A DNA stretch of 64,000 bases from Alphaproteobacteria bacterium (lineage in GTDB: Bacteria > Pseudomonadota > Alphaproteobacteria > CAAGCB01 > CAG-977), in contig CAAGEP010000003.1 of assembly GCA_900768875.1 (NCBI GenBank), forward strand, positions 474,433 to 538,432, written 5' to 3'. The notes beneath the pieces are model-generated. The model ran no database searches and was not told the origin of the DNA. It saw only the letters and a program-made list of their open reading frames with translations. This document shows, one piece after another, positions 35,411 through 52,083 of the stretch; the stretch's first letter is position 1, and each line of letters begins with the position of its first letter. The translations under genes were made by a program, and so were the position numbers.

Positions 35411-37689
35411 CGCGCGCTCCTTTTGAATTCGGCGATGTATTCATCCAGCAACGGCGTTGTTTCGACAATTTGATTCCACGGCAGAGATCCGTGAACCAAC
35501 ACGCGCACCGTTGCAGGCTTCCACCAATCGGGATATTCGGATTCGGGCAGGCGGTACGGCTGAAAAGATGCCATACCGGCAGGCAAGCGGGTGAATTCGT
35601 CAATAACGGCTTGGTCGAAGTTATCGTATTCGGCATCCGTTTCGGCGTTTTTCATATTGACGCCGCCCAAATACGATCCCGCAAAATTTACATTGCGCAA
35701 ATCGGCGTTTTCCAAATCGGCCAGCCGCAAATCCGTTTGCGACAAATCGATTGGATGTCCCAAATCCCGACGGATTCTTTTATCCGTCAACGCCTTCAAA
35801 GCCAAAGCCACATCGTCCGTCATCGGCTCTATCGGTTTGAACAAATCGGTCTGCGCCGACCAATGCCGCTGCTGTCTGACATATTCGGCCAAAATGTCCG
35901 CCGCGGCATTTTCCAGTTTTTCATCGCGCGCCGCCAAACACCCCAACGTGCAGATTGCCCACAGCCTGTCGTTCATTTCCGCCGGAGGATTGGCCAGCAA
36001 AGTCATCGCCCTTACCGCCATATTTTGGCCGCCGGATTTGCCCAAAAGCACGTCTTCGCACGCCGAACGGGAGCATTGGAACGGCTTGTTTTTCCACTTT
36101 TGACGATACAGGCGTTCATCGTAAGCCGCCGAATCAAAGTCGGGGAAATTTTTGGGCGGCAAAGTTTTTTTGTCAATGACGACGCGTCGGATTTCGTTTA
36201 AAGGCACGTCGGAAACAGCTGAAATATCCGCCCCGCCGAAATCGGCTTTGTAAAACACCGCATTGCCAAATATCAGATTGCCTTTGAAAACGGCTTTTCT
36301 GAAATCGGCGCGCGTCAAAACGGCATAATCCAAGTACGCATTGTCGAAAACGGCTTTGTAAAAAATCGATTGTTCAAAAGACACGCTTTTCATGTAGCAA
36401 TTCACACAGGTTACCTGCGTAAAATCCGCTTTGTTGGCGACAGCACCGTCCAGCACGACGTTGTCGAATACGGCCTGCCGAGCTTGAACATTGTCCATGT
36501 TCAGCCGGTAGGCCATGACATCCTGCCACGCGGTGTTGGCAATATTGGCGTCTTTCACGGACGAAAACGTTAAAACTGCATCGCGGAACTGCGTATTGCT
36601 TAAATCGGCTCCGTCAAAATTCGCCAGCGACGCATCAACGGAATGTAAATGTGAAAAGCGCATTTTCGCGCCTTTGAAAAAAGATTTTGACAGGTTGACG
36701 CCTTTGAACAGAACATCGTCCAATTCCGCCCCGTAAAACAAAGCTTCCGAAAAATCGGAATTCAAAAAATAAGCCCCTTTGAAAAAGGAATTTGAAAAAT
36801 TGTTGCCGGCCATTGTTCCTTGGGCGAACTCGGCCTTTTCAAAGTTGACATGCGACAAATCCAACGCATCGCATTTTTCTTTGCCGTAAACGGCTTCTGC
36901 GATTTCGACGCTTTTCTGCATATTGATATTTCTGCGGACGTCGTTGTTTGTCGGCGTGTAGTAGGGAGCCGGCCACGGATGGCATTTGCGCAAATAATCC
37001 GACACGGCCTGTTTCGCGGAACAGACCGTCCGGCCGTTGCTCAGATTATCCGTTGACATCAGCCAGTGCAAAGTCGAAAGAACGTCCGTCATATCGTCTT
37101 TACATTCTTTCAATTCGCCAAACGCCCACTCCGTCCATTCGCTTTTATCCTGCGGCCGCTTGTTTTCGGCAACGACGGGGGGCGTCAAACGGGCGTACGG
37201 CGCAAACGGAAGCGGACGGATTTTTGCTTCGGCTTTGACGGCTTTGACGGGGTTTTTCAAGGGATAAATTCTGACCTGCACGGGATTGGCTTCAGCCGCA
37301 GGTTTTGAAAAAAGTTTCGACTTGCGTTTCGTTTTCAGTGTTTCCGGCGGCAAAATCATCACCTTGGCGGGACTGAGAACCGCATCGACGGCTTGGTTGT
37401 TCGTCCACTTTGCCGGCTTGTCGTACAAAGAAACGCCGACCGTCGCATCCATACCGTGCGGATTGGGCTTGAGCGCGGAATCCGACGGCAAAGTGTTTGT
37501 TACCGCGCTGGTCAAAGTCCCCGAACGCGTCGGTGTTGTTTTGGATTCATGGAGGGAGTCCGTATGCGCCAAATCGGACACGGGCAAAAAAAACACCACG
37601 ACGTTTTTCGGCACGGCGGCGGCGATAACGGCAGACGACAGCAACGCCCCGCCGATTGACAGCCCCAGTTTTTTAAACTTTTTTGACAT
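35407..37689 (-). CDS. Large pentapeptide-repeat protein with a signal peptide.
   Basis: 760 aa. N-terminal signal peptide or anchor. A central run of about 40 pentapeptide repeats (ANFDGADLSNTQFRDAVLTF...) and a second short run near the C-terminus. Overlaps the Sel1 gene by 4 nt. Confidence 0.75.
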   Translation of the reverse strand: MSKKFKKLGLSIGGALLSSAVIAAAVPKNVVVFFLPVSDLAHTDSLHESKTTPTRSGTLTSAVTNTLPSDSALKPNPHGMDATVGVSLYDKPAKWTNNQAVDAVLSPAKVMILPPETLKTKRKSKLFSKPAAEANPVQVRIYPLKNPVKAVKAEAKIRPLPFAPYARLTPPVVAENKRPQDKSEWTEWAFGELKECKDDMTDVLSTLHWLMSTDNLSNGRTVCSAKQAVSDYLRKCHPWPAPYYTPTNNDVRRNINMQKSVEIAEAVYGKEKCDALDLSHVNFEKAEFAQGTMAGNNFSNSFFKGAYFLNSDFSEALFYGAELDDVLFKGVNLSKSFFKGAKMRFSHLHSVDASLANFDGADLSNTQFRDAVLTFSSVKDANIANTAWQDVMAYRLNMDNVQARQAVFDNVVLDGAVANKADFTQVTCVNCYMKSVSFEQSIFYKAVFDNAYLDYAVLTRADFRKAVFKGNLIFGNAVFYKADFGGADISAVSDVPLNEIRRVVIDKKTLPPKNFPDFDSAAYDERLYRQKWKNKPFQCSRSACEDVLLGKSGGQNMAVRAMTLLANPPAEMNDRLWAICTLGCLAARDEKLENAAADILAEYVRQQRHWSAQTDLFKPIEPMTDDVALALKALTDKRIRRDLGHPIDLSQTDLRLADLENADLRNVNFAGSYLGGVNMKNAETDAEYDNFDQAVIDEFTRLPAGMASFQPYRLPESEYPDWWKPATVRVLVHGSLPWNQIVETTPLLDEYIAEFKRSAR

Positions 37690-38224: not shown

Positions 38225-39574
38225 ATGTCACAGGACGCGATTACCGTCGTCGGGGGCGGATTGGCGGGCAGCGAAGCCGCTTGGCAGATAGCGAAAGCGG
38301 GGATTCCCGTTGTTTTAAAGGAAATGCGCCCCGTCAAGCAAACACCCGCGCACCGTACGGACGGGCTGGCGGAACTGGTGTGTTCAAACTCTTTAAGATC
38401 CGACGACGCGATACATAACGCCGTCGGTTTGCTGCACGAAGAAATGCGCCGCTGCGATTCGCTGATTATGCGCGCCGCCGATTTGAACAAAGTTCCCGCG
38501 GGCGGAGCTTTGGCGGTCGACCGCGACGCTTTTTCCAAAACAATCGGGGAAGCTCTCGCCAACCACCCGCTTGTAACAATCAAGCGCGAGGAAATGACCG
38601 AACTGCCCGCCCCCGATTCGGGCAAGTACGTCATTGCGACGGGACCGTTGACTTCGGCAAGTCTGGCGGAACAAATCCAAGCCGTCGCGGGCGGGGATAT
38701 TCTGCATTTTTTCGACGCCATCGCGCCGATTGTCACCGCCGATTCGGTCGATATGACCAAAGCGTGGAAGCAATCCCGCTACGACAAAGGCGACGGCGAC
38801 GACTATATCAACTGTCCCTTGGACGAAGAAGAGTACAACGCCTTTATCGACAACCTGCTGTCGGGGGAAAAGGTCGCGTTCAAAGACTGGGAGAAAAACA
38901 CGCCCTACTTCGAGGGCTGCCTGCCGATTGAAGTCATGGCGGAACGCGGACGGGAAACGCTGGCGTTCGGACCGATGAAGCCTGTCGGCTTGATGAATCC
39001 GCACACGGGCAAGCGTCCTTACGCCGTCGTCCAGCTGAGAAAAGAAAACAAGCAGGGAACTTTGCTGAATCTGGTCGGTTTTCAAACAAAGCTGGTGTAC
39101 GGCGAACAAAAGCGAATCTTTAAAACGATTCCCGGACTGGAAAACGCAGAATTTGTGCGCTTGGGCGGAATTCACCGCAACACGTTCATTCACTCGCCGA
39201 CCGTTTTGGACGGAACTTTACGGCTGAAAGCACGCCCGAACCTGCGCTTTGCAGGACAAGTCACGGGGTGTGAAGGCTACGTCGAAAGCGCGGCGGTCGG
39301 ACTGATGGCGGGATTGTTCGCCGCATGGGAAACGCAGGGCAAGGAAATCGTCCCGCCGCCGATTGAAACGGCGCTGGGCGCAATGCTGAACCACATCACC
39401 GTATCGGCGGAAAGCGATTTGTTCCAGCCGATGAACATCAACTTCGGATTGATGCCGCCCCCGCCCGTCCCCGAAGGCAAACGCAAAATCAAAGGGCTTG
39501 ACCGCAAACGCGCGCAAAGCGAACGGGCGACCGCCGCGCTGACACAATGGCTTGAACAGGCAGGTTTGAAATGA
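38225..39574 (+). CDS. trmFO: Methylenetetrahydrofolate--tRNA-(uracil54-C5)-methyltransferase TrmFO.
   Basis: 449 aa. FAD-binding N-terminus [17 protein letters not shown]. The length and motifs are TrmFO/Gid-like. Confidence 0.85.
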
Positions 39575-40449
39575 CGCACGACATCAAACGCACCAAAGAC
39601 GCCAACGGTGAAAACTTTCCCGTCGGATCTTGCTTAATTCCGGCGAAACTGCGCCCGCACGTCATGGCTTTTTACGACTACGCCCGCACGGCGGACGACG
39701 TTGCGGATTCCGATTTGCCGCGCATGGAAAAGCTCAGACGCCTTGACGCTTTGGAAGCCGTCCTGCGCGGACTGCGCGACGCGGACGAGGACACAAAGTG
39801 CGCCGAAACCCTGCGCAACAGCTTGGAGGAAACGGGTGTTACAAACCAGCACGCTTTGGATTTGCTCAAAGCGTTCCGGCAAGACGCCATCGGCTTCACC
39901 TACAAAACATGGGAAGACGTTATGGCGTACTGCCGCAATTCGGCGGGCAGCGTCGGGCGTTACATGCTGGATTTGCACGGTGAAAACCCGTCGGCGTATT
40001 GGCCTTCGGATGCTTTATGCGCCGCCTTGCAGCTGAACAACCACCTGCAGGATTGCCAAGACGACTATCAGAACCGCCAGCGCGTTTACATCCCGCGCGA
40101 CTGGTTCAGCGACGAAAAAATCAAATACGAAGCTTTAAGCGACAGCATTACCTGCGATGCCTTGCGCCGCGTGTTCGACCGTATGGCGGCGGCAATCGAC
40201 AGCCTGCTGGTCGAAAGCTCGCCTCTGCCCCTTGTCATTCGGCACAGAGGGCTGAGAATGGAAGTCTGCGTCATCTACCGTTTGGCGCAAAGACTGTTGA
40301 AAAAACTGAAAAAACGCGACATCTTGAAACGCAAAGTCGCTTTGGAAAAAACGGACTGGGTGCTGGCGGGAACGCGCGGCATTTTGGACGGACTGACACG
40401 AAAGAAAATCAAATGCCTGAAAAAACAAGACCTCTTGCCGCCGAAGTAG
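39571..40449 (+). CDS. hpnC: Squalene/phytoene-synthase family enzyme HpnC (hydroxysqualene synthase).
   Basis: 292 aa with the ENFPVGS motif, the [10 protein letters not shown] Asp-rich motif and a second Asp-rich motif. First gene of the hpnCDE trio. Confidence 0.75.
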
Positions 40450-41279
40450 AATCCGTCGTTAAACGGTCGGGCAGCTCGTTTTACTGGGCGATGCGGCTGT
40501 TGGGCAAACAAAAGCGCGACGCCATGTTTGCGATTTACGCGTTTTGCCGTGAAATCGACGACATCGCCGACGAACCCGCTTTATTGGAACAAAAGCGGCA
40601 GGCTTTGCAAGTTTGGCGCGACGATTTGGATAAAATCTATGCGGGCGGACAGCCGACGCAAAGAATCGCCGAAGCCTTGATTGAACCCGTTAAAACGTTT
40701 GCCTTGCCCAAAGACGAGTTTATCGCCTTGATTGACGGTATGGAAATGGACATTCCCGACGGCATGCGCGCGCCGACGATGACCGAGCTTCAGCTGTACT
40801 GCCGCCGCGTTGCGGGGGCGGTCGGGATGCTGTCCGTGTGCGTGTTCGGCGACTTTTCCGAAACGGCGCAAAGATTCGCGATTACTTTGGGCGAAGCTTT
40901 GCAGTTGACCAACATCCTGCGCGATATGGACGAAGATATGGAGCTGGGGCGACTGTATATGCCCAAGGAATGTCTGGACAAAGCGGGCATTGCCGTCACC
41001 GACGACACGCATTTAAGCGACATTTTGAACCACCCGAATCTGGGTGTCGCCCGCGCGGCTTTGGCGGAACAAGCCCTGCTCCGCTACGCCGAAGCGGATG
41101 CCGCTTTGGAAAAGCTGAACGCCAAGCAGATGAAACCCGCCGTGATTATGAAAGCCGCCTACCGCAAAATCTTTGACGCGATGCAAAAACGCGGCTGGAG
41201 CGTTGTGCGTCCGCGCATCAAAACACCTAAATCAACGCTGTTGCTGACGGCTTTGCGCATTTGGCTGATTGGCAGGTAA
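40413..41279 (+). CDS. hpnD: Presqualene diphosphate synthase HpnD.
   Basis: The ATG at 40413 gives a 288-aa protein ([30 protein letters not shown]...FCREIDDIAD). The ORF track's 426-aa call from 39999 is an out-of-context extension overlapping hpnC. Confidence 0.75.
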   Translation: MPEKTRPLAAEVESVVKRSGSSFYWAMRLLGKQKRDAMFAIYAFCREIDDIADEPALLEQKRQALQVWRDDLDKIYAGGQPTQRIAEALIEPVKTFALPKDEFIALIDGMEMDIPDGMRAPTMTELQLYCRRVAGAVGMLSVCVFGDFSETAQRFAITLGEALQLTNILRDMDEDMELGRLYMPKECLDKAGIAVTDDTHLSDILNHPNLGVARAALAEQALLRYAEADAALEKLNAKQMKPAVIMKAAYRKIFDAMQKRGWSVVRPRIKTPKSTLLLTALRIWLIGR

Positions 41280-41282
41280 GCC

Positions 41283-42314
41283 ATGACCGTATACGTCATC
41301 GGCGCAGGCATGGCGGGGCTGAGCGCGGCTTTTCACGCCTGCAAAGCGGGACATCACGTCGTTGTTTTGGAATCCTCCAACCACGCGGGCGGACGGTGCT
41401 ATTCCTATTTGGACAAGGAATGGAACCGCCTGTTGGACAACGGCACGCACTTGATGCTGGGGGCGAACACCGCTTTGCTGGAAATCCTGCGCCAATGCCC
41501 GACGGAAACACCGCTAAAGCCGATTGGGTCAAGCTTGACGTTTTACCGCCGCAACCTCGGCTGTTTTACGGTGGATTTGAATCACCCGCTCAAAGCGTTG
41601 CTTCACCTGCCCGAATTGTACAAACTGCTGGCGGAATCCGTGCTGAACACCCCTGCGAAACAAGCGGACAAAGCCCTTTTGTTCAAAACGGCGCGCCTGT
41701 GCTTTTCGGCGCGGGACAAGCAAATCTATCTGGCGAATCCGTCGCTGAAGCAATCCGTCGTCGACCCGATTTACAATTATCTGAAAGACAAGGTCGAATT
41801 CTACTTCAGCCACCCCGCCCGCGGGTTCGAGATTGACCGTATTTTGTCTGATTCCGTCGATTTTCTGATTTCGCCCGATGACAAAATCATTTCGACCGTT
41901 CCGCCGAAAAAAGCCGAATTCGGCACAATCGTCAACATCCATTACAAGACGGACGCGACTTTGCCTGACGGTTTGCCTGTTGTCGGATTGATTGGCATGC
42001 TGCCGCATTGGGTGTTTTGTCAAAACGGAATCGTGTCCGTAACCATCAGCGCGGCGAACGGTTTGAATACCGCAGACATTGCGGAACGGGTTTGGGATGA
42101 ACTTTGCCCTTTGCTTCATTCGCTGGACAGCACGCCGCCGAACCGCGTCATCATCGACCGGCGTGCGACCTTGCTGCAAACGCGCAAGACCAAACGTCCC
42201 TCCGCCGATTCCGAATTCGGATTGATTTTGGCGGGCGACGGCACAAAAACGGGATTGCCCTGCACGATAGAAAGCGCGGTGCGTTCCGGAAAAACGGCGG
42301 CAAACCTGCTCTGA
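41283..42314 (+). CDS. hpnE: FAD-dependent amine-oxidase-like hydroxysqualene dehydroxylase HpnE.
   Basis: 343 aa. GxGxxG motif (VIGAGMAGLSAA...LESSNHAGGR). Follows hpnD. Confidence 0.7.
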   Translation: MTVYVIGAGMAGLSAAFHACKAGHHVVVLESSNHAGGRCYSYLDKEWNRLLDNGTHLMLGANTALLEILRQCPTETPLKPIGSSLTFYRRNLGCFTVDLNHPLKALLHLPELYKLLAESVLNTPAKQADKALLFKTARLCFSARDKQIYLANPSLKQSVVDPIYNYLKDKVEFYFSHPARGFEIDRILSDSVDFLISPDDKIISTVPPKKAEFGTIVNIHYKTDATLPDGLPVVGLIGMLPHWVFCQNGIVSVTISAANGLNTADIAERVWDELCPLLHSLDSTPPNRVIIDRRATLLQTRKTKRPSADSEFGLILAGDGTKTGLPCTIESAVRSGKTAANLL

Positions 42315-42371
42315 TTGCTATCTTTACCGGCACAGCGGCAAGCGGTATCCTGCTAAAAAAAGGAGGATACC

Positions 42372-42980
42372 ATGGCTTTTGAACTGCCTGTTTTACCCTA
42401 TGCCAAAAACGCGCTTGAGCCGTTTATTTCGGAACAAACGCTGGATTTTCATTACGGCAAGCATCATCAAACATACATTGCGAATTTGAACAACTTGATT
42501 CGCAACACGGCTTTGGCGAACAAAACGCTGGAACAAATCGTCCGCGAAACGGCGGACAAGCCCGACAAATCGGCGATTTTCAACAATGCGGCGCAAAGCT
42601 TCAATCACACGTTTTACTGGAACAGCCTGCGCCCGAACGGCGACGGCAGAATCCCCGAAAGCACGTTCAAAGCCGCCGTTTTAAAAACGTTCGGCGGGGC
42701 TGAAAGCTTGAAAGCCGAATTGAAATCGGCCGCTTTGTCCCAATTCGGCAGCGGGTGGGCGTGGCTGATTGCGGACAAAGGCGCGCTGAAAATCACCAAA
42801 ACGGCAAACGCGGACACGCCGGCGGCGCACGGACAAACGCCGCTGCTGACCATTGATGTTTGGGAACACGCGTATTATCTGGATTATCAAAACAAGCGCG
42901 CCGATTACGTCCAAGCGATTATCGACAACCTGCTGAACTGGGATTTTGCGGCATCGAATTTCAGTTCATCCGACAAATGA
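42372..42980 (+). CDS. sodB: Fe/Mn superoxide dismutase.
   Basis: 202 aa with Fe/Mn-SOD signatures (HHxKHH...DVWEHAYY). Confidence 0.85.
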   Translation: MAFELPVLPYAKNALEPFISEQTLDFHYGKHHQTYIANLNNLIRNTALANKTLEQIVRETADKPDKSAIFNNAAQSFNHTFYWNSLRPNGDGRIPESTFKAAVLKTFGGAESLKAELKSAALSQFGSGWAWLIADKGALKITKTANADTPAAHGQTPLLTIDVWEHAYYLDYQNKRADYVQAIIDNLLNWDFAASNFSSSDK

Positions 42981-43544
42981 AAACCGTTTGCCGTCCCATT
43001 CCAGACAAAAGGGCGTTCCGTGCGGGACTTGCGGATATTTTTGCCCGAATGCCAGCAGAGTGCAACGAATGGCGGCACTGTGTCCCGATATGCCGATGCG
43101 ATCGCAAGGGTGATTTTCGGCAATGTCCGTCAAAGCGGCCAACCAGCGGGTCTGGATTTGCCGCTTTGTTTCGCCGTTCGGAAAGCACACGTCCATGTCA
43201 CAGGCTTCCAAGCTTTCCCACCGCGGAGCGATGTCCGGAAACAGAGCATAAATTTCGTAAATGGTTTTACCCTCTGCCGCACCGAAGCATCCTTCGACTA
43301 ACCCGCCGCACTTCGTTACGGGAACATTGATTTTACGGGCAACGATTTTTGCGGTCTGCACGGCGCGCAACAAAGGCGACGTGAATATCGCTTGAATTCC
43401 AGCGGAAACCAGCCTGTCGGCCAGATTTTCAGCCTGCCGCACGCCCGTTTCATTCAGCGGCGCGTTAATCAGCCGTCCCTGCCAACGGCGTTCGGCGTTC
43501 ATATCGGTTTGCCCGTGACGAAACAAATAAAACAGTTTTTTCAT
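42966..43544 (-). CDS. Histidine phosphatase (phosphoglycerate mutase-like) family protein.
   Basis: 192 aa with the RHGQT catalytic motif at the N-terminus. Confidence 0.65.
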   Translation of the reverse strand: MKKLFYLFRHGQTDMNAERRWQGRLINAPLNETGVRQAENLADRLVSAGIQAIFTSPLLRAVQTAKIVARKINVPVTKCGGLVEGCFGAAEGKTIYEIYALFPDIAPRWESLEACDMDVCFPNGETKRQIQTRWLAALTDIAENHPCDRIGISGHSAAIRCTLLAFGQKYPQVPHGTPFCLEWDGKRFSFVG

Positions 43545-43556
43545 CGTTATACGATT

Positions 43557-43572
43557 TTAATTGTTTATTAAC
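43557..43572. promoter_or_regulatory. Perfect CtrA-type box TTAA-N7-TTAAC, 56 bp upstream of the Cys-rich protein gene.
   Basis: ttaa-ttgttta-ttaac. It is also part of the inverted repeat TTAAT...ATTAA. Confidence 0.35.
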
Positions 43573-43627
43573 ACCCGAAGTTATGCCATACTGTAGAATC
43601 ATAGTAAATATTTTTCGGAGGCATCTC

Positions 43628-45766
43628 ATGCGAAAATTTATTCTTTGCCTTATCGTTTTGTGTTGGTCGGCGGGGACTTCCGCCGCCGTGCTGAATGATG
43701 CGGACGCGTTTGTCATCGCGCGCAGTGCAAAGCTGGGCGAAATGGAGGACAGCTTTTCCTCCGGCAAACAGGTCACCAAAAAAATCGGCTGCGCTCCGGG
43801 GGAAGCCGATTGCGTCGGTCCGACCTTGTGCAAAACGGATTCCCAGTGCAAAGATGACGAATACTGCTCCGTCATCAAACAATGCACGAAGCTGTGTTCG
43901 GGCGGTGTCAATTCGGATGGGGAAAAATGTTCGGATTACCCGCGCATGCCCGAATGTACGCCCACAAAAAACGGGCATAAATCCTACTGCGCCTGCACGG
44001 ACACGTCTTGCGGCACAGGGTGGAAATGTGCTGAACAAAACGGCATAAAGCAGTGCGTTATCTGTTCCGCGGGCGAAGCATGCGGATGTCCCGATGGCAA
44101 AATGTCCAACGGCAAAGGCGGTTGCGGCGGCTGCAACACGAATGAAGATTGCGCGGGCAACGAAACCTGCGCGGATGCGGGAACGACCGAAGCCGAATGT
44201 AAAACGATAACATGCCCCGACGGAACTTTCCCCAAGGATCACGACTGCGTCAAATGCAGCGCGCTGGATGCGAACTGTCTGGAATGTTCGGAAACGCAAT
44301 GCGTCACGTGTCTGCCCGCCTATGATTTGGTTGACGGGAAATGCGTGCTGAAAACGTGTCCCGACGGCCAGTATCTGGACGAACTTACCGGCACATGCAA
44401 TCCGTGCGGCGCGGGATGCAAAAAATGCACATCGGCCGACGTCTGTACGGAATGTGAAAGCGCTTATGATTTGGAAAACGGCGCATGCAAAACCAAAAAC
44501 TGCGGCGACGGCATGTATTTGAATATGGAAACGGGCGAATGTCTGTCCTGTTCCGCGGAATGTGCGACATGCACGAACGTTGCGAACGACGGTGAAACGT
44601 CGCAGTGCATCACCTGCGCCGACGGTTATCACATGGCGGACGGCGTTTGCGTTGCGAACGGATGCGCGGATATGAAGCTGGCGACCGAATGTGGCGCCAA
44701 TCAAATCAAAACCGACGCGGGTGTGGCAACCAACGGGGAACAGTGCTGGTCCTGCGCAGACCCCGAACCCGAATGTCGCAAGGATACGGATTGCGACAGC
44801 ACGCAGAAATGTTCGCCGGACGGTGAATGTGTGCTGAAAACATGCGCGGAAATGGGGTATGAAAAGACCTGCTCCGCGGGCTATTTGAAAAACGAAGCCG
44901 CGGTCGGTTCGGACGGCATGTGCTACACCTGCCAGAACCCTGCAAAAGACTGCCCCGCGGACAAACCCGCGTGGGACGGCAAAAAATGCGTTCAATGCAC
45001 CGCAAACAGCCATTGCGAAAGCTTTGAATACTGCAAAGATAATCAGTGCGTCCTGCAGGCGGGTAAATGCTATACCAGCAATGATTGCCAGTATAACGAT
45101 TATTGCAAAGACCATTCCTGTGTTCCTGCCTGTGACCCGAATCCGTGTTCCGGTAAAACTCCCAGATGCGCAGTTTACAGCAGCCACACAGCAAAATGCA
45201 CCTGCACTCCAAGCCCCGATTCTTGCGGCGCAGGATACAACTGCGTTAATAGCGGCGGATATAACTGCAAACCGACAACGTGTTCATCTGACGACGATTG
45301 CGATCACGACAAAGCTTGCAAGAACGGGAAATGCGTGGATCCTTGCGATCCGAACCCGTGTTCCGGTAAAACTCCCAGATGCGCAGTTTACAGTAACCAC
45401 ACAGCAAAATGCACCTGCACTCCAAGCCCCGATTCTTGCGGCGCAGGATACAACTGCGTTAATAGCGGCGGATTCAACTGCAAACCGACAACGTGTTCAT
45501 CTGACGACGATTGCGATCAATCCAAAGCTTGCAAGAACGGGAAATGCGTGGATCCTTGCGATCCGAACCCGTGTTCCGGCGAACAGCCACGCTGCGGCAG
45601 CGGCAGTCACCGTGCTAAATGTTATTGCACATCAACCAGTTGTCCGGCCGGATACGTTTGCGACGGTGCGAGCTGCAAAATGAAAACAACGGAAAAATGC
45701 ACGACGGACGACGATTGTTCGGCGGACAAAAAATGCTCCGACGGTTATTGCGTCTACCGCGAATAA
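43628..45766 (+). CDS. Secreted, extremely cysteine-rich repeat protein (furin-like/VSP-like CxxC modules plus EGF/EB-like modules). Eukaryote-like.
   Basis: The ATG at 43628 follows a GGAGG Shine-Dalgarno. Signal peptide MRKFILCLIVLCWSAGTSAA. The 712-aa protein is about 15% Cys. Recurring motifs: C-x2-C...TC-x-xG-YL and DPNPCSGKTPRC. Confidence 0.7.
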   Translation: MRKFILCLIVLCWSAGTSAAVLNDADAFVIARSAKLGEMEDSFSSGKQVTKKIGCAPGEADCVGPTLCKTDSQCKDDEYCSVIKQCTKLCSGGVNSDGEKCSDYPRMPECTPTKNGHKSYCACTDTSCGTGWKCAEQNGIKQCVICSAGEACGCPDGKMSNGKGGCGGCNTNEDCAGNETCADAGTTEAECKTITCPDGTFPKDHDCVKCSALDANCLECSETQCVTCLPAYDLVDGKCVLKTCPDGQYLDELTGTCNPCGAGCKKCTSADVCTECESAYDLENGACKTKNCGDGMYLNMETGECLSCSAECATCTNVANDGETSQCITCADGYHMADGVCVANGCADMKLATECGANQIKTDAGVATNGEQCWSCADPEPECRKDTDCDSTQKCSPDGECVLKTCAEMGYEKTCSAGYLKNEAAVGSDGMCYTCQNPAKDCPADKPAWDGKKCVQCTANSHCESFEYCKDNQCVLQAGKCYTSNDCQYNDYCKDHSCVPACDPNPCSGKTPRCAVYSSHTAKCTCTPSPDSCGAGYNCVNSGGYNCKPTTCSSDDDCDHDKACKNGKCVDPCDPNPCSGKTPRCAVYSNHTAKCTCTPSPDSCGAGYNCVNSGGFNCKPTTCSSDDDCDQSKACKNGKCVDPCDPNPCSGEQPRCGSGSHRAKCYCTSTSCPAGYVCDGASCKMKTTEKCTTDDDCSADKKCSDGYCVYRE
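45134..45580 (+). repeat. 213-bp (71-aa) tandem repeat inside the Cys-rich gene: two near-identical copies plus the start of a third.
   Basis: Copies begin at 45134, 45347 and 45560. Copies 1 and 2 differ at only a handful of nucleotides. Confidence 0.8.
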
Positions 45767-45781
45767 AATCCTACCCTGCGG

Positions 45782-45811
45782 AAAAAGCGGCCTTTCGGCC
45801 GCTTTTTTTTA
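45782..45811 (+). terminator. Rho-independent terminator of the Cys-rich gene.
   Basis: aaagcggcc-tttc-ggccgcttt followed by a T8 run. Confidence 0.7.
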
Positions 45812-45950
45812 CATCCTTTTTCGAGTCCGCATATCCTCCCTCGTCATTGCGAGGCCGCGTCAACGACAAAACAATCCACTGACTCCGCCTTCGCGGCCGG
45901 TATCCTGCAAATGAATCCCCCGCCTCGGGCTTTACCGTTTCCCGTGATGA

Positions 45951-45987
45951 CAAAAAAAAGCAGGCACCGTGGGGACAGTGCCTGCTT
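45951..45987 (-). terminator. Rho-independent terminator of adhE.
   Basis: Minus-strand hairpin agcaggcac...gtgcctgct followed by a U8 tract. Confidence 0.65.
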
Positions 45988-46010
45988 TGATAGGAAGGAA
46001 TCCGGAGGGA

Positions 46011-48602
46011 TTAAACGATTCCTTCGTAAGCCTTCAAGTAGATTTCCTTGATTTCCTTGAACAAAGGATAACGGGGGTTGGCGCCCGTGCACTGGTCGTC
46101 AAACGCCATTTCCACCAGTTCGTCCAACTTGGCGTTAAAGTCTTCTTCTTTAATGCCGTAATCGCGGATGGACAGAGGAATGTTGACTTCTTTCTTCAAG
46201 TTCGTCAGCGCCTGCAGCAGCAATTCCAACTTTTCGTCGTCGTTTTTGCCGCCCAATTTCAGAGCGTTGGCAATCTGACCGTACTTTTCTTTCGCATTGG
46301 GGTATTTGTACTGAGCGAAAGCCGCCTGTTTGACAGGGCGGTCGCTTGCGTTGAAGCGAATGACCTGACACAGCAGCAACGCATTCGCGATACCGTGCGG
46401 AATGTTGAACGCGGCGCCCAGTTTATGCGCCATCGAATGGCACAATCCCAAGAACGCGTTAGCAAAAGCCATACCCGCCAGCGTGGACGCATAGTGCATC
46501 TTTTCGCGGGCAATCGGGTCGTTTTTGCCGTTTTTGTAGGAACGCGGCAGGTATTTGTAAACCTTTTTCGCGGCTTCCAAAGCGTTCGAGTTCGTGAAGT
46601 TCGTCGCCATAATGGAAACGTAAGCTTCAATCGCGTGAACAATCGCGTCATAACCCGAAGCGGCGCACAGTCCCGGCGGCATCGTGTCGACCAAGTTCGC
46701 GTCGACAATCGCCATGGACGGGGTCAGCGCATAGTCCGCCAACGGATATTTGATGTGGGTTTTGTCGTCGGTAATAACCGCGAACGGCGTTACTTCGGAA
46801 CCCGTACCGGACGTCGTCGGAATGGCAACCATGGACGCTTTTGCACCCAAAGCGGGCAAATCGCAAATTCTCTTGCGGATATCCATAAAGCGCATGGCGA
46901 CGTCTTCGAACTTGATTTCGGGTTGTTCGTACATCAGCCACATGACTTTGCACGCGTCAATCGGCGAACCGCCGCCTAGCGCGATAAAGCAATCGGGTTC
47001 GTACGTTTTGACCATCATCATCGCGTCGTTAATCGTCGACAGGGTGGGGTCGGGCTTCACGTCAAAGAAAATCTGGTAATCCGTTCCGATTTCGTCCAAA
47101 ACGCGCGTGATGTTGTTCACGGCACCCGAATTGAACAGGAAGCGGTCGGTTACGATAAAGGCGCGTTTTTTGCCTTTCAGTTCGCGCAAAGCGTAGTCCA
47201 TCGACCCGCGTTTGAAATAAATCTTGGGCGGTACTTTATACCACAGCATATTTTCTCTCCTTTCGGCGACGGTTTTGATGTTCAACAGGTGCTTCGGACC
47301 AACGTTTTCGCTGGTGGCGTTGCCGCCCCACGAACCGCAGCCGATGGTCAGCGTCGGGTTCAGTTTGAAGTTGAACAAATCGCCGATGGCGCCCTGCGCC
47401 GCGGGGGAGTTGATTAAAATGCGGCCGGTATGGATTTTGTTGCCGAACGCGTTGATTCTGTCGGTCTTTCTTTCGTCCGTGTACAGAACGGAAGTATGAC
47501 CCGCGCCGCCGTGATCGACCAGCGTGTAGGCTTTTTCCATCGCGTCTTCAAAGTCTTTGGCGCGGTACAGAGCCAAAACGGGCGACAGTTTTTCGTGCGC
47601 GAACGGTTCTGCGGTCGTCGTGTCTTCGACTTCGCCAATCAGAACCTTTGTTTCTTCGGGAACTTCGATTCCCGCCATTTCCGCGATTTTATAAGCGGGC
47701 TGACCGACAATCGCGGGGTTTACGCCGCGCGGGGTCAACAGAATGGCGGCGACTTTTTCGCGTTCCTGTTCATTCAGAATGTATGCGCCGCGGAATTCAA
47801 ATTCCTTGCGGACGGCTTCGTACACTTCGTCAACCGCGATAACGGATTGTTCGGACGCGCAAATCATGCCGTTGTCGAACGTTTTGCTCAGCAGAATCGA
47901 GGAAACAGCCATTTGAATGTCGGCAGTTTCGTCAATGACCGCGGGCGTATTGCCGGGACCGACGCCCAAAGCGGGCTTGCCCGAAGAATAAGCGGCTTTG
48001 ACCATGCCGGGGCCGCCCGTCGCCAGAATGATGTCAACCTTGGGGTGTTTCATCAGCATATCGGACAATTCGATGGTCGGTTCGTCAATCCAGCCGATGA
48101 TTCCTTCCGGAGCGCCGGCTTTGACCGCGGCTTCCAAGCACAGCTTGGCGGCGGCGATGGTGCTTTTCTTGGCGCGGGGGTGCGGCGAAAAGACAATGGC
48201 GTTGCGCGTTTTCAGCGCAATCAGAGTTTTGAAAATGGCTGTGGAAGTCGGGTTCGTCGTCGGAACGATGCCTGCGATAACGCCGATGGGTTCGGCGATT
48301 TTTTTGATACCGCCGGCTTTGTCTTCTTCGATGACGCCGCAGGTTTTCATATTTCTGTATTTGTTATAGATGTATTCGGACGCGAAGTGGTTTTTAATCA
48401 CCTTGTCTTCCATAACGCCCATTCCCGTTTCTTCGGCAGCCATCTGCGCCAAAGGAATACGGGCTTTGTTAGCCGCCAACGCGACTTCACGGAAAATCTT
48501 GTCCACCTGTTCCTGCGTGTACGAAGCGTATTTCGCCTGTGCTTCGTGCGCTTTGGTAATGACGGCCTCAAGATCCTCTGCGGTTCTGACTTCGTTTTCC
48601 AT
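46011..48602 (-). CDS. adhE: Bifunctional acetaldehyde-CoA/alcohol dehydrogenase AdhE.
   Basis: 863 aa. N-terminal ALDH domain and C-terminal Fe-ADH domain. The N-terminus is typical of AdhE. Confidence 0.9.
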   Translation of the reverse strand: MENEVRTAEDLEAVITKAHEAQAKYASYTQEQVDKIFREVALAANKARIPLAQMAAEETGMGVMEDKVIKNHFASEYIYNKYRNMKTCGVIEEDKAGGIKKIAEPIGVIAGIVPTTNPTSTAIFKTLIALKTRNAIVFSPHPRAKKSTIAAAKLCLEAAVKAGAPEGIIGWIDEPTIELSDMLMKHPKVDIILATGGPGMVKAAYSSGKPALGVGPGNTPAVIDETADIQMAVSSILLSKTFDNGMICASEQSVIAVDEVYEAVRKEFEFRGAYILNEQEREKVAAILLTPRGVNPAIVGQPAYKIAEMAGIEVPEETKVLIGEVEDTTTAEPFAHEKLSPVLALYRAKDFEDAMEKAYTLVDHGGAGHTSVLYTDERKTDRINAFGNKIHTGRILINSPAAQGAIGDLFNFKLNPTLTIGCGSWGGNATSENVGPKHLLNIKTVAERRENMLWYKVPPKIYFKRGSMDYALRELKGKKRAFIVTDRFLFNSGAVNNITRVLDEIGTDYQIFFDVKPDPTLSTINDAMMMVKTYEPDCFIALGGGSPIDACKVMWLMYEQPEIKFEDVAMRFMDIRKRICDLPALGAKASMVAIPTTSGTGSEVTPFAVITDDKTHIKYPLADYALTPSMAIVDANLVDTMPPGLCAASGYDAIVHAIEAYVSIMATNFTNSNALEAAKKVYKYLPRSYKNGKNDPIAREKMHYASTLAGMAFANAFLGLCHSMAHKLGAAFNIPHGIANALLLCQVIRFNASDRPVKQAAFAQYKYPNAKEKYGQIANALKLGGKNDDEKLELLLQALTNLKKEVNIPLSIRDYGIKEEDFNAKLDELVEMAFDDQCTGANPRYPLFKEIKEIYLKAYEGIV

Positions 48603-48634
48603 TGTTCCCTCTGATAGTAAACTGTTTGGGTTAA

Positions 48635-48652
48635 TCGTGATTTATTTCACAG
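48635..48652. promoter_or_regulatory. Putative Rex operator (TGTGA-N6-TCACA type) in the adhE/rex divergent intergenic region.
   Basis: tcGTGAtttattTCACag, starting 33 bp upstream of the adhE start. Confidence 0.5.
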
Positions 48653-48781
48653 TTTTCTATATAATCGAATCGCCCCCAAAAATCAAGCACTTTTCTAAAA
48701 ACCGTCCGAAAAATCTTTCGGTCTGGATTTTTGTGAAAAACCCTTTTATGATTGAGTCGAAAAAATTCAAGGAATTATGTT

Positions 48782-49396
48782 ATGAATCAGCCTCTTTCCG
48801 AAAAAGTGTACGCCCGTCTGACGCAATATCACAGCTTGCTGATTGAATATATCGAAGACGGCATCCCCACCATTTCCAGCCCTCAAATCGCCGTTCGACT
48901 GGGTGTGGACGATTCGCAGGTGCGCAAGGATTTCAAGCTGCTGAACAATGAAGGGCGCGGACGCGTCGGATACGACGTGCAGGCGCTCAAAGAATCGATT
49001 GAAGACACGCTCGGCTTTCAAATCGTCAAAAACGCGGTCATCATCGGCGCGGGGCATCTGGGCATGGCTTTGGCGAACTATTCCGCGTTCAGCGACTACG
49101 GACTGAACATTCTGGCATTATTCGACAGCGCGCCCGAAAAGGTCGGCACGGCGGTCAACGGCAAACCGATTTACCCTGTTTCCCGCCTGTCCGAAATGGC
49201 GCGCGAATCCCAAGCCGACATCGCCATTCTGACCGTTCCGCGCGCGTTCGCGCAAAAAGTCGCCGACGATTTGGTCAAAGCCGACTTTAAATATATCTGG
49301 AACTTCACGCCCGCGATTTTGAAAGTCCCCGACGGCATCAAAGTCCGCAACGAAAACCTTGTCGCGGGCTTTTTGCAGTTCGCGAATCAGGACTGA
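48782..49396 (+). CDS. rex: Redox-sensing transcriptional repressor Rex.
   Basis: 204 aa from the ATG at 48782. N-terminal winged helix and Rossmann fold (IIGAGHLGMALANY). Divergent from adhE. Confidence 0.8.
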   Translation: MNQPLSEKVYARLTQYHSLLIEYIEDGIPTISSPQIAVRLGVDDSQVRKDFKLLNNEGRGRVGYDVQALKESIEDTLGFQIVKNAVIIGAGHLGMALANYSAFSDYGLNILALFDSAPEKVGTAVNGKPIYPVSRLSEMARESQADIAILTVPRAFAQKVADDLVKADFKYIWNFTPAILKVPDGIKVRNENLVAGFLQFANQD

Positions 49397-49399
49397 CTT

Positions 49400-50641
49400 T
49401 TATTTTTCAAACAAAGCCGCCAATTCCAAATGCGGCGTAAAGACGAACTGGTCGACGGGGCGCAGGCGTTTGAGCGTATAGCCGCCGTTTATCAGTATTT
49501 CCGCGTCGCGCGCAAAGCTGACGGGATTGCACGACACGGCGACGACTTTGGGAATCCCCGCGGCGGCGATTTGCTCGACTTGCGCCTTCGCCCCCGCGCG
49601 CGGCGGGTCGAACACCACGCAATCAAAGCCCTCCAGTTCATCGGGATACAGCGGCGTTTTGAACAAATCGCGTTCCTGCACCTCCACCCTGCCCTGCGAC
49701 GCCAGCCGCAAAGCCTCCAAAGCGAACGGCGCGTTGTCCGCCCCTTTTAAAATCCGCTTTTTCTGTAATAAAGGCAAAGTGAACGTTCCCGCCCCGCAAA
49801 ACAGGTCGTAAACTTTTTTGGCTTTGCCGACATATTCGACAACGGCGGCGGTCAAAGCGTCCTGTCCCGCTTCGGACGGCTGAAGGAACACGCCCGCGGG
49901 CGGATTCAGCGTAAAATCGCCGATTTTCAGTTCGGGACGGTGCAGTATAATCAGCGGCTCGGCTTCCTGCCGTTCCGAAGAACGCCACGACACGCGCGCC
50001 ACGCCGTTTTCGACAGCGAAATCCGCCAAAGCTTTGCGCCACGCCGCATCGGGGGAAAACGGCAAAGTCAGCAGCACGTCCGCCCCCGTATCCGTCCACA
50101 GCAAAGACACGTCGCCCGAACCGCGTTTTTTGGGATACGGCAGTTTTTTGTCCGTTACCGCGGCGCGCAAAGGCTTTATCAGCCGCTCCAGTTCGGGAAT
50201 CAAAACGGCGCAGGAATCGACGGACAAAATTTTTTCGCTTTGCCTTTGGTTCAATCCCAAGCCCCTAAACAATCCGTTCCACACAACGGCAAACGTTACG
50301 CGCCGTCTGGTTTTCGGAGCAACGAAAACAGGCTCGTCGAATTCGGGCAGCTCCAGCCCCGCCAACGATTCACGCAGGCAGCGCAGTTTGAACGCCCTGT
50401 ACGCGTCCGCGCCCAGCTGCTGCAAAGCGCACCCGCCGCACTCCGCCGCATAAGGGCAAAGCGGGACGGCTCTGTCCGCGCTCGGCTCAAGGACTTGCAC
50501 GACTTCCGCGCGGGTATCCGACACCATGCGGTATTCCACTGTATCGCCCGCCGCCGTGTTCGGGATAAAAACCTTTTTGCCGTTGACCGTTATCAGCCCG
50601 TCGCCCTGACGCGCCAAATCGAAAACTTTTGCCGTATTCAT
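49400..50641 (-). CDS. 23S rRNA (uracil-C5)-methyltransferase of the RumA/RlmD family.
   Basis: 413 aa. N-terminal TRAM domain, an Fe-S Cys cluster (CPYAAECGGCALQ) and a class I SAM methyltransferase C-terminus. Confidence 0.7.
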   Translation of the reverse strand: MNTAKVFDLARQGDGLITVNGKKVFIPNTAAGDTVEYRMVSDTRAEVVQVLEPSADRAVPLCPYAAECGGCALQQLGADAYRAFKLRCLRESLAGLELPEFDEPVFVAPKTRRRVTFAVVWNGLFRGLGLNQRQSEKILSVDSCAVLIPELERLIKPLRAAVTDKKLPYPKKRGSGDVSLLWTDTGADVLLTLPFSPDAAWRKALADFAVENGVARVSWRSSERQEAEPLIILHRPELKIGDFTLNPPAGVFLQPSEAGQDALTAAVVEYVGKAKKVYDLFCGAGTFTLPLLQKKRILKGADNAPFALEALRLASQGRVEVQERDLFKTPLYPDELEGFDCVVFDPPRAGAKAQVEQIAAAGIPKVVAVSCNPVSFARDAEILINGGYTLKRLRPVDQFVFTPHLELAALFEK

Positions 50642-50705
50642 TTTTTTCCTGTCTTTAGCTATGACTTTTCGCTACACTATATTCAATTTTTGTCGGAGAA
50701 TCCAA

Positions 50706-51328
50706 TGCTGAAAATTTTAATTGCTGACGATCACGAGCTTTTTTTGGACGGCTTGCGGCTGGTTTTGTCGGATTTGGACAGCGAAATCACCGTTGACACC
50801 GCGTCCAATCATCACGAATTGCAGCAAAAAGCGGACGGGAAAACCGCTTACGATTTGATTTTGACGGATTTGGCAATGCCCGGAATGCCGTGGCACGAAT
50901 CCCTTCGCCGATTGAAAGAAAACAATCCCGACACGCCGATTGTCGTCCTGTCCGCCGTAACCGAACCCGAAAACGTCCTGCAAGCCGTCGATATCGGCGC
51001 ATCGGGCTTTATTCCGAAAACGTCGTCCAACAAAATCATTCTCAGCGCTCTGCATCTGATTTTGGCGGGCGGGTTATACCTGCCGTCGGAATTGCTGAGC
51101 CTGCAAAACAAGCCCGAAGACACCGCCGTCAAAGGCATCTTGACCCCGCGGCAGCTGGATGTTTTGCGCTTGATGGGACAAGGAAAGCCGAATAAAATCA
51201 TCGCCCGCGAATTGGATTTGTCCGAAGGCACCGTCAAACTGCACGTCACCGCGATTTTAAAGGCGCTGAACGTCATCAACCGCACGGGCGCGGTGATTGC
51301 GGGCAGAAATTTGGGATTGATAGACTGA
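50706..51328 (+). CDS. NarL/FixJ-family response regulator (REC plus LuxR HTH).
   Basis: 207 aa from the ATG at 50706 (MLKILIADDHELFLDGLR...). The C-terminal HTH is LSEGTVKLHVTAILKAL. The ORF-track call from 49940 is an antisense/upstream extension. Confidence 0.8.
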
Positions 51329-52083
51329 TGACCGATACCAAAAAAGATTTTATGACATCATCGCCGAAGCCCGTTCCGCCTCCGCGTATTGATTTCGTGG
51401 CGGAAGATTCCGACGCCGTTTTGCCGCCGTATCTTGAATCGGTTTACAAACGCCGTTATTTTTCGCCGCAATTCATCCGTTTTTTCAACAGCACCGTTAT
51501 GACGGCCGTATCGAACTGTTTTATGCAAAAACGGTTAATTCGCTATGTAACGGATGAAATCCATGCGGGACAGAATGTTTTGCAGTTCGGAACGGCGGAC
51601 GGCAGTTTGCAGCATGCCGTTGCCGAAAAAATGAACGGCAGCGGCGTCTATCATATCGAAGACATCTCAAAACCGCAAATCGACGCCTTGCTGCCGTCAA
51701 TTTCGCCATGGCTGAACGTGCGTCTGAACGTGCGCGACTTTTCAAACCCGACGGACCGGAAATATGATGCCGCCGTTTTATTTTTCACGCTTCATGAATT
51801 ACCCGACGCCCGCAAGGAAATCGTTTTAAAGCGAGCTTTCGACGCGCTGACTTCCCACGGAAAAATCATTGCGGTCGATTACGCCATGCCTTGCGCCTAT
51901 CATCCGATAAAGCACCCTTTGCGGCTGTTCAACCGTTTATTCGAGCCGTTCGCGGAATCGCTTTGGTACAAGGACATCAAGAGCTTCGCCCCCGCAAATT
52001 TGCGGGAATCCAAGAATATCATCTGGGCGAAATCGACAACGTTCGGCGGACTGTACCAGTGCGTCATCGCGCAGAAACGGTAA
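51328..52083 (+). CDS. Class-I methyltransferase-fold protein with a degenerate SAM motif I. Function unknown (RquA-like?).
   Basis: 251 aa. Motif I reads VLQFGTADGS instead of VLDxGCGTG. The acidic beta-2 end (YHIEDIS) and motif II (DAAVLFFTLHELPD) are retained. Confidence 0.5.
   Translation: MTDTKKDFMTSSPKPVPPPRIDFVAEDSDAVLPPYLESVYKRRYFSPQFIRFFNSTVMTAVSNCFMQKRLIRYVTDEIHAGQNVLQFGTADGSLQHAVAEKMNGSGVYHIEDISKPQIDALLPSISPWLNVRLNVRDFSNPTDRKYDAAVLFFTLHELPDARKEIVLKRAFDALTSHGKIIAVDYAMPCAYHPIKHPLRLFNRLFEPFAESLWYKDIKSFAPANLRESKNIIWAKSTTFGGLYQCVIAQKR

Follow-up and report, generated by a model that had tools for sequence, protein, structure and literature searches.

Bacterial surface proteins built from near-identical, in-frame repeats of whole modules are generally known from alpha C and Rib of group B Streptococcus and from the repeat adhesins of staphylococci and lactobacilli, where the number of copies varies between close strains. 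Also generally known are hypervariable internal domains with conserved ends, such as the central domain of the flagellin FliC and the domains of mosaic antigen genes. Here, we analyze a gene from an alphaproteobacterium (assembly GCA_900768875.1, contig CAAGEP010000003.1) that resembles both. It lies in the window, by which we mean the whole 64,000-nucleotide (nt) stretch of that contig, within which all coordinates are counted. The gene encodes a secreted, cysteine-rich modular protein of 712 amino acids (aa) in which a 213-base pair (bp) unit stands twice in tandem.

With the repeat proteins it shares near-identical in-frame repeats of a whole module, a copy number that varies between close strains, and a signal peptide. 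It differs from them in that the young unit is present just once or twice, flanked by modules of different, ancient types. Furthermore, its module is a cysteine-rich, epidermal growth factor (EGF)-like unit without a Pfam family, the protein has neither LPXTG nor another anchor, and its host is an uncultured Gram-negative gut alphaproteobacterium. With FliC-type domains it shares divergence within sharp bounds, the gene and locus being near-identical elsewhere, allelic lineages that predate the species, and one allele type that is common to another species. Its family and fold are different, however, it consists of discrete modules of varying number, and its exposure and antigenicity are putative. 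In-frame domain-repeat polymorphism and hypervariable, recombining surface regions are both well-known kinds of variation; the present locus is a further case, in an unannotated family and an uncultured gut lineage. A literature search found no paper describing this cysteine-rich protein family or its locus; PMC12979206, considered as relevant literature, proved to have no bearing on tandem repeats in bacterial genes.

The gene and its repeated part, with the units named as they are used below, are as follows.

43628 to 45766, forward strand: gene for the 712-aa secreted cysteine-rich modular protein (open reading frame and translation; 100% match to database protein P0001)
45134 to 45346, forward strand: tandem unit 1 (codons 503 to 573), module type A, haplotype Ser / GGYN / HD
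45347 to 45559, forward strand: tandem unit 2 (codons 574 to 644), module type A, haplotype Asn / GGFN / QS, beginning with GATCCGAAC
45560 to 45763, forward strand: third module, of a different type, fused to the conserved C-terminal tail TTEKCTTDDDCSADKKCSDGYCVYRE, which starts at about 45686

The original prediction described two near-identical adjacent units starting at 45134 and 45347, separated by S/N, Y/F, and HD/QS changes, and a third unit that begins at 45560 and then diverges. We find all of these features. Tandem Repeats Finder (TRF) reports an array at 45137 to 45579 with a period of 213, 2.1 copies, 96% matches, 0% indels, and a score of 830, and direct comparison shows 204 of 213 bases to be identical between the units, without indels. 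This tandem match is far beyond chance. The repeat unit is exactly 71 codons long and in frame with the reading frame that ends at 45766. Positions 45560 to 45579 repeat the first 20 nt of unit 2, after which the DNA of the third module diverges; at the protein level the third module is homologous, with 54% aa identity to unit 1. Its tail, TTEKCTTDDDCSADKKCSDGYCVYRE, is 92 to 100% identical within the species and 64 to 79% identical to that of a second species (P0026 to P0028). No further copy of the unit, or of any module, was found in the window by blastn or tblastn. The nine differences between the units comprise four synonymous and five nonsynonymous changes (unit 1/unit 2 coordinates).

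45136/45349: C/T, synonymous
45142/45355: T/C, synonymous
45181/45394: C/T, synonymous
45183/45396: G/A, Ser to Asn
45261-2/45474-5: AT/TC, Tyr to Phe (45261/45474 nonsynonymous; 45262/45475 counted synonymous)
45307-9/45520-2: CGA/ATC, His-Asp to Gln-Ser

The joint between the units indicates how the repeat arose, and it also bears on whether the repeat is real. One-copy alleles read GACCCGAAT-CCGTGTTCCGG-TAAAAC where the unit begins and GATCCGAAC-CCGTGTTCCGG-CGAACA where it gives way to the third module; these two parental junctions have only the 11-nt core CCGTGTTCCGG in common. In the window, the joint between units 1 and 2 reads GATCCGAAC-CCGTGTTCCGG-TAAAAC, a new combination. The GATCCGAAC with which unit 2 starts is the junction variant that elsewhere is placed before the third module. 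Since CCGTGTTCCGG, which stands at every boundary between modules, is the only sequence common to both parental junctions, the crossover that produced the duplication must have fallen inside it.

45356 to 45366, forward strand: 11-nt microhomology CCGTGTTCCGG, also present at 45143 to 45153 and 45569 to 45579 (junction comparison)
Joint from upstream sequence to unit: GACCCGAATCCGTGTTCCGGTAAAAC
Joint from unit to unit: GATCCGAACCCGTGTTCCGGTAAAAC
Joint from unit to third module: GATCCGAACCCGTGTTCCGGCGAACA

An assembler might instead have written a single unit twice. The genome is probably metagenome-assembled, its relatives are metagenome-assembled genomes (MAGs), and repeats are classic sites of misassembly. 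Yet joint k-mers of 21 to 55 nt are present in the window and in assemblies L002 and L003, and absent from the one-copy assemblies L001 and L007. The joint thus requires k-mers that one-copy alleles lack, and the same joint recurs in three assemblies, at least one of which (L003) represents a different strain background, with 114 differences from the window in 12 kb. Moreover, the nine differences between the units mean that neither is a literal copy of the other. Because a k-mer assembler cannot make this joint from a one-copy genome, artificial expansion is excluded on sequence grounds, and this reading has a very low probability. The site had also been flagged beforehand as a potential place of assembly collapse or expansion; the expansion half of that warning is contradicted by the junction k-mers, while some of the one-copy assemblies may be collapsed.

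That the duplication is real and recent can be held with high confidence from its sequence. The units, 96% identical, in frame, and with a novel joint, bear out the proposal that a module of this secreted cysteine-rich protein was duplicated in frame very recently. Taken as a whole, the explanation that best fits these data, a genuine and evolutionarily very young tandem duplication of a 71-aa disulfide-rich module, is in our judgment very probable.

Comparison of repeat number between strains, as had been recommended, shows that near-identical strains do differ. We found 15 distinct proteins of 641 aa (given as P0002 to P0016 minus the truncated P0013) that are exactly 71 aa shorter than P0001 and 93 to 94% identical to it by local alignment. 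Three sequences are 712 aa long (P0001, P0079, and P0086). The 641-aa and 712-aa alleles are 98 to 100% identical at the locus over 12 kb, and the loci are fully syntenic; this comparison of copy number rests on short-read assemblies, so two-copy alleles may have collapsed in some of them. The haplotypes of the A-type units are as follows.

Window (P0001), two copies: unit 1 S/GGYN/HD; unit 2 N/GGFN/QS
L002 (P0086), two copies: unit 1 S/GGYN/HD; unit 2 N/GGYN/HD
L003 (P0079), two copies: unit 1 S/SGFK/QS; unit 2 N/SGFK/QS
One-copy alleles: S/GGFN/QS, S/GGYN/QS, S/GGYN/HD, S/SGFK/QS, and N/GGYN/QS

The Ser/Asn site and a linked synonymous site separate unit 1 from unit 2 in all two-copy alleles, unit 2 being T47/A49 (Asn). 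The remaining unit-to-unit differences are allelic haplotypes, which one-copy genes carry too. The suggestion that the S/N, Y/F, and HD/QS changes diversified after the duplication is therefore not supported: the variants segregate among one-copy alleles, and the units of the other two-copy alleles differ only at S/N. Rather than new mutations, these variants appear to have been reshuffled by recombination. The one-copy haplotypes S/FN/QS, S/YN/QS, and S/YN/HD are single-crossover deletion products of the window allele, and the N-terminal haplotype of the two-copy P0079 is also that of the one-copy P0010. Within unit 2 of the window, one patch stands out.

45474 to 45522, forward strand: unit 2 patch holding the only five differences (45474-5 and 45520-2) from L002 over 12,139 bp, and equal to the one-copy L001 haplotype

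This patch is either a gene-conversion or recombination tract or the mis-phasing of co-resident strains in one assembly. Elsewhere in the locus, the window and L003 differ by about 11 substitutions in 21 nt (41505 to 41525) inside an amine-oxidase-family gene, where identity is 94% in that 200-nt block; this cluster is a small recombination or conversion patch.

Short-read assembly could offer another explanation of these data. The duplication could be real and fixed in the lineage, with one-copy alleles and the hybrid unit 2 arising from short-read collapse and chimeric phasing. The A-type unit would then hardly vary in true copy number, if at all. The units in L002 and L003 have an exact run of 183 nt in common, longer than usual k-mers, so collapse is possible in some one-copy assemblies. 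In addition, the one-copy P0010 has exactly the N-terminal haplotype of the two-copy P0079, each common one-copy haplotype corresponds to a two-copy graph walk that skips the loop, and only 5 nt, all inside unit 2, separate the window from L002. However, there are 15 distinct one-copy sequences, several of them on contigs of 195 to 503 kb, and one-copy alleles stand on many N-terminal backgrounds that yielded no two-copy counterpart. Module number also varies among alleles that are too divergent to collapse (637 to 638 aa versus 700 to 706 aa). We therefore consider wholesale collapse unlikely and hold with moderate confidence that copy number is truly polymorphic. The simplest reading is one duplication, followed by its spread with gene conversion and by recurrent homologous deletion to one copy, although the reverse direction is possible. 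In JGI metagenomes, no exact match to the pattern of the unit start was found, and a protein scan gave one low-coverage contig.

The duplicated unit lies within a stretch that varies far more radically than its surroundings. A 12-kb alignment of the window against seven other assemblies shows 98 to 100% identity except at about 45028 to 45810, where sliding identity falls to 8 to 78%; finer mapping places the boundaries of this island at about 45060 to 45146 and 45687 to 45701. Proteins from the same species are 97 to 99% identical over their N-terminal 443 aa and 30 to 73% identical over the module array. The alleles hold the following arrays.

45065 to 45700 (about 640 bp), forward strand: hypervariable module-array region; alleles differ in module type and number, and flanks are 98 to 100% identical
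Window: A-A-D
A-D
B-C-B (706 aa)
Three C-like modules (700 and 680 aa)
Two D'-like modules (638 aa)
E-E (637 aa)
A one-module form (L016)

Synonymous divergence (dS), calculated by the Nei-Gojobori method, follows opposite patterns within and between species.

Window versus L004 (same species): N-terminal dS 0.029; module-region dS 1.66
L004 versus L014 (different species, about 50% N-terminal aa identity): N-terminal dS 1.80; module-region dS 0.29

More broadly, within-species dS is 1.2 to 2.7 in the module region and 0.015 to 0.05 in the N-terminal part. At synonymous sites, the module alleles are thus far older than the species, and the C-type cassette, at least, has moved between species. 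The whole C-terminal array, and not just the duplicated unit, constitutes an allelic cassette.

Repeat turnover is not confined to the window. Tandem DNA repeats of 183 to 210 bp with 83 to 94% identity occur in L004, L011, L014, and L015, and many homologues have neighboring modules with at least 85% identity, at periods of 36, 61, 65, 66, 70, and 71 aa. The distant homologues P0057, P0055, and P0058 also have near-identical tandem modules, for example, the 36-aa 'CPSGYSTSVTSCGSGYTLKTNGYSG..ACGKCE' at 89 to 96% identity. Repeat turnover thus runs through the whole family, and the duplication in the window is the youngest example of the normal mode in which these arrays are built and rebuilt.

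How this turnover might proceed is suggested by the junctions. A length of 11 nt is too short for ordinary RecA-dependent recombination. Because the crossover lies within an 11-nt microhomology, slipped or illegitimate recombination at a short conserved module junction, without RecA, is the probable origin of the duplication. Existing 213-bp repeats could then recombine homologously, returning to one copy by deletions whose crossover points vary, and undergoing gene conversion both between units and between alleles; this would explain the mosaic S/N, YN/FN/SGFK, and HD/QS haplotypes. Conserved flanks and a conserved junction (…GKCVDPC-DPNPCSG…) would also allow allelic replacement by homologous recombination and the gain or loss of modules.

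The array is probably exposed, and the protein may be able to do without it. Frequency-dependent selection from phage or host antibody might maintain its variety of module types and numbers in the population, as for hypervariable flagellin domains or repeat-bearing adhesins. Module number would then alter the length or valency of the exposed part, adding an epitope or binding unit, without on/off switching. Confidence that phage or host antibody is the selective agent is low to moderate. We tentatively propose that the duplication is the youngest event in an undescribed population-level system of uncultured human-gut Alphaproteobacteria: a eukaryote-like (furin/EGF-like), cysteine-rich secreted protein whose interchangeable C-terminal modules are older than the species, are exchanged between species, are repeatedly duplicated or deleted at a conserved junction, and are under frequency-dependent selection by antibody or phage. 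This full scenario is plausible, yet somewhat less probable than its negation. In the A-type unit, seven segregating changes are nonsynonymous and two synonymous, whereas the corresponding totals for five flanking genes are 20 and 64 (Fisher P = 0.002); the unit shows an excess of amino-acid polymorphism.

Several points weigh against the best-fitting explanation as a whole. The ratio of nonsynonymous to synonymous divergence (dN/dS) of the modules is about 0.2 to 0.4, which speaks for purifying selection on the fold and not for pervasive positive selection, and the polymorphism counts of the A-type unit are small. Surface location and selective agent are putative; beyond the predicted signal peptide, no anchor or secretion signal was recognizable in the protein, nor any Pfam domain. 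Some one-copy short-read alleles could be collapsed two-copy alleles, and the hybrid unit 2 of the window, which is only 5 nt away from L002, might be a chimera of strains. It is even possible that one sample yielded both the window and L002. Gain and loss of the unit appear to be readable in either direction from the alleles.

Programmed variation would be a different source of the same diversity, whether by repeat-mediated phase variation, silent-cassette conversion, or a diversity-generating retroelement. The duplication had been called typical of contingency loci, and extreme local variability together with repeated DNA in a putative surface protein speaks for such a system. However, an in-frame unit of 213 bp offers no means of switching expression by frameshift, and TRF, run on 40000 to 52000, found no tract of short (1 to 9 bp) repeats within the gene or in the interval separating the divergent start codons. 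The closest such tract, 7 bp repeated 2.1 times at 43486 to 43500, lies inside the divergent His_Phos_1 coding region. Nor did we find a template or silent-cassette copy of the variable region, as a diversity-generating retroelement would have, within the 64-kb window, the rest of the genome not having been searched for a reverse transcriptase. A silent-cassette source was rejected because no module copies lie elsewhere in the window and these modules are also missing from the paralogue that a related genome (L013) carries. A diversity-generating retroelement was rejected because the window holds no template repeat and the differences between module alleles include indels and saturated synonymous sites and are not adenine-specific. 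Furthermore, the alleles are stable enough to be common to several samples and species. Programmed variation is thus most improbable here, and the contingency-locus interpretation does not hold.

The duplication alone is ordinary repeat polymorphism; its value is as a marker of a single stretch of about 640 bp that varies radically within a near-clonal 12-kb locus. Loci of this kind usually mark a molecule that is seen by phages or by the host immune system. This makes the gene a candidate both for strain typing and for a role in host or phage interaction in this uncultured lineage. The length of the gene in short-read MAGs is unreliable.

The protein contains 106 cysteines in 712 aa, and profile searches do not place it in a known family. 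A Pfam-A hmmscan returned no family at E ≤ 1, and NCBIfam gave two chance-level KdpC matches (E = 0.12 and 0.18, scoring about 12 bits where the cut-offs are 320 to 369). Among its relatives, Pfam detects only sub-threshold Dumpy_DPY, Dickkopf_N, and DUF7107. An AlphaFold model based on 33 homologues has a mean predicted local distance difference test (pLDDT) score of 75, falling below 50 for residues 1 to 54, and shows an all-beta-hairpin, beads-on-a-string arrangement. In Foldseek searches, the central part of this model matches R-spondin Fu1-Fu2 (probability 1.0, E = 3.6e-3); Notch EGF arrays, mastigoneme, and LRP2 also match. By phmmer, cysteine-rich regions of PCSK5 match at E values of 1e-33 to 1e-16 over 20 to 29% of the query (P0067, E = 6.7e-33), in agreement with the R-spondin match to the central part of the protein.

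Among known systems, it can be compared with the furin-like cysteine-rich repeat proteins (the PCSK5 cysteine-rich region and R-spondin Fu1-Fu2; PF15913, PF14843, and PF03302, the last being the Giardia variant-specific surface protein), and the likeness concerns the central part, by both phmmer and Foldseek. The window protein nevertheless has no profile match to PF15913, PF14843, or PF00757 (Pfam-A, E ≤ 1), it is bacterial, it lacks a protease or receptor domain, and its duplicated C-terminal module is not furin-like. In that module, the motif C-x-PNPC-S-x5-C-x7-9-C-x-C-x5-7-GY-x-C and the predicted paired beta-hairpins look like those of EGF-like arrays (Notch, uromodulin, and Pfs25). Unlike these, each 71-aa unit has 12 cysteines and a second small, knot-like half, and the matches are all weak. 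Modelled separately, the C-terminal 211 residues reach a pLDDT of 82, and their Foldseek matches are all tandem EGF arrays (E ≥ 0.015, probability ≤ 0.69). An EGF-type fold of the duplicated module is putative; Pfam gives no EGF match. A phmmer search with the single unit returned only six proteins at E ≤ 0.001 among 1.84 billion representatives, which shows that its family is narrow.

The likely start of the gene is the ATG at 43628, since a GGAGG at 43617 to 43621 precedes it by 6 nt and the identical, 712-aa database protein P0001 starts there; a longer reading frame from 43583 is probably not used. Between strains, dN/dS of the N-terminal part is about 0.14. A 539-aa open reading frame on the reverse strand (43568 to 45187) overlaps most of the gene and was rejected as most likely a stop-free by-product of its Cys/Gly-rich codon composition. 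The gene lies between a divergent His_Phos_1 (histidine-phosphatase) gene and a convergent adhE, and looks monocistronic. Two further features stand at the start of its coding sequence and past its end; the second was not listed by a scan for consensus promoters and terminators.

43628 to 43687, forward strand: predicted Sec signal peptide, MRKFILCLIVLCWSAGTSAA / VLND (cleavage site judged by eye from the translation)
45782 to 45810, forward strand: terminator-like hairpin, AAAAAGCGGCC-TTTC-GGCCGCTTTTT followed by a T run, 16 nt past the stop (read from the sequence)

The His_Phos_1 gene (42966 to 43544, reverse strand) adjoins the cysteine-rich gene, as its counterpart does in the distant-species L014 and L015 (4345 to 4926, reverse strand), where the other neighbors differ. 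The two may form a conserved gene pair.

Relatives derive from human-gut metagenomes, Hadza samples among them, and from MAGs that carry the label 'Acetobacter sp.' or 'Alphaproteobacteria bacterium' (UBA6411, UBA2903, and HGM16787); the host is thus an uncultured human-gut alphaproteobacterium. A search of genome contigs by alignment returned other species only. Two homologues, L011 and L012 (CAVCSV01 contigs), are in a bin labelled Limosilactobacillus gorillae, probably through contamination or mislabelling of the bin. Farther from the gene, the reverse strand at 35407 to 37689 encodes a 760-aa protein in which pentapeptide repeats make up most of the length (matches to three Pfam pentapeptide families, with E as low as 5e-33). 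On the forward strand at 39571 to 42314, two adjacent squalene/phytoene-synthase-family genes (39571 to 40449 and about 40413 to 41279) are followed by a flavin amine-oxidase-family gene (41283 to 42314), an order that we take to resemble the HpnC-HpnD-HpnE squalene route. The same gut alphaproteobacterium also has AdhE and Rex.

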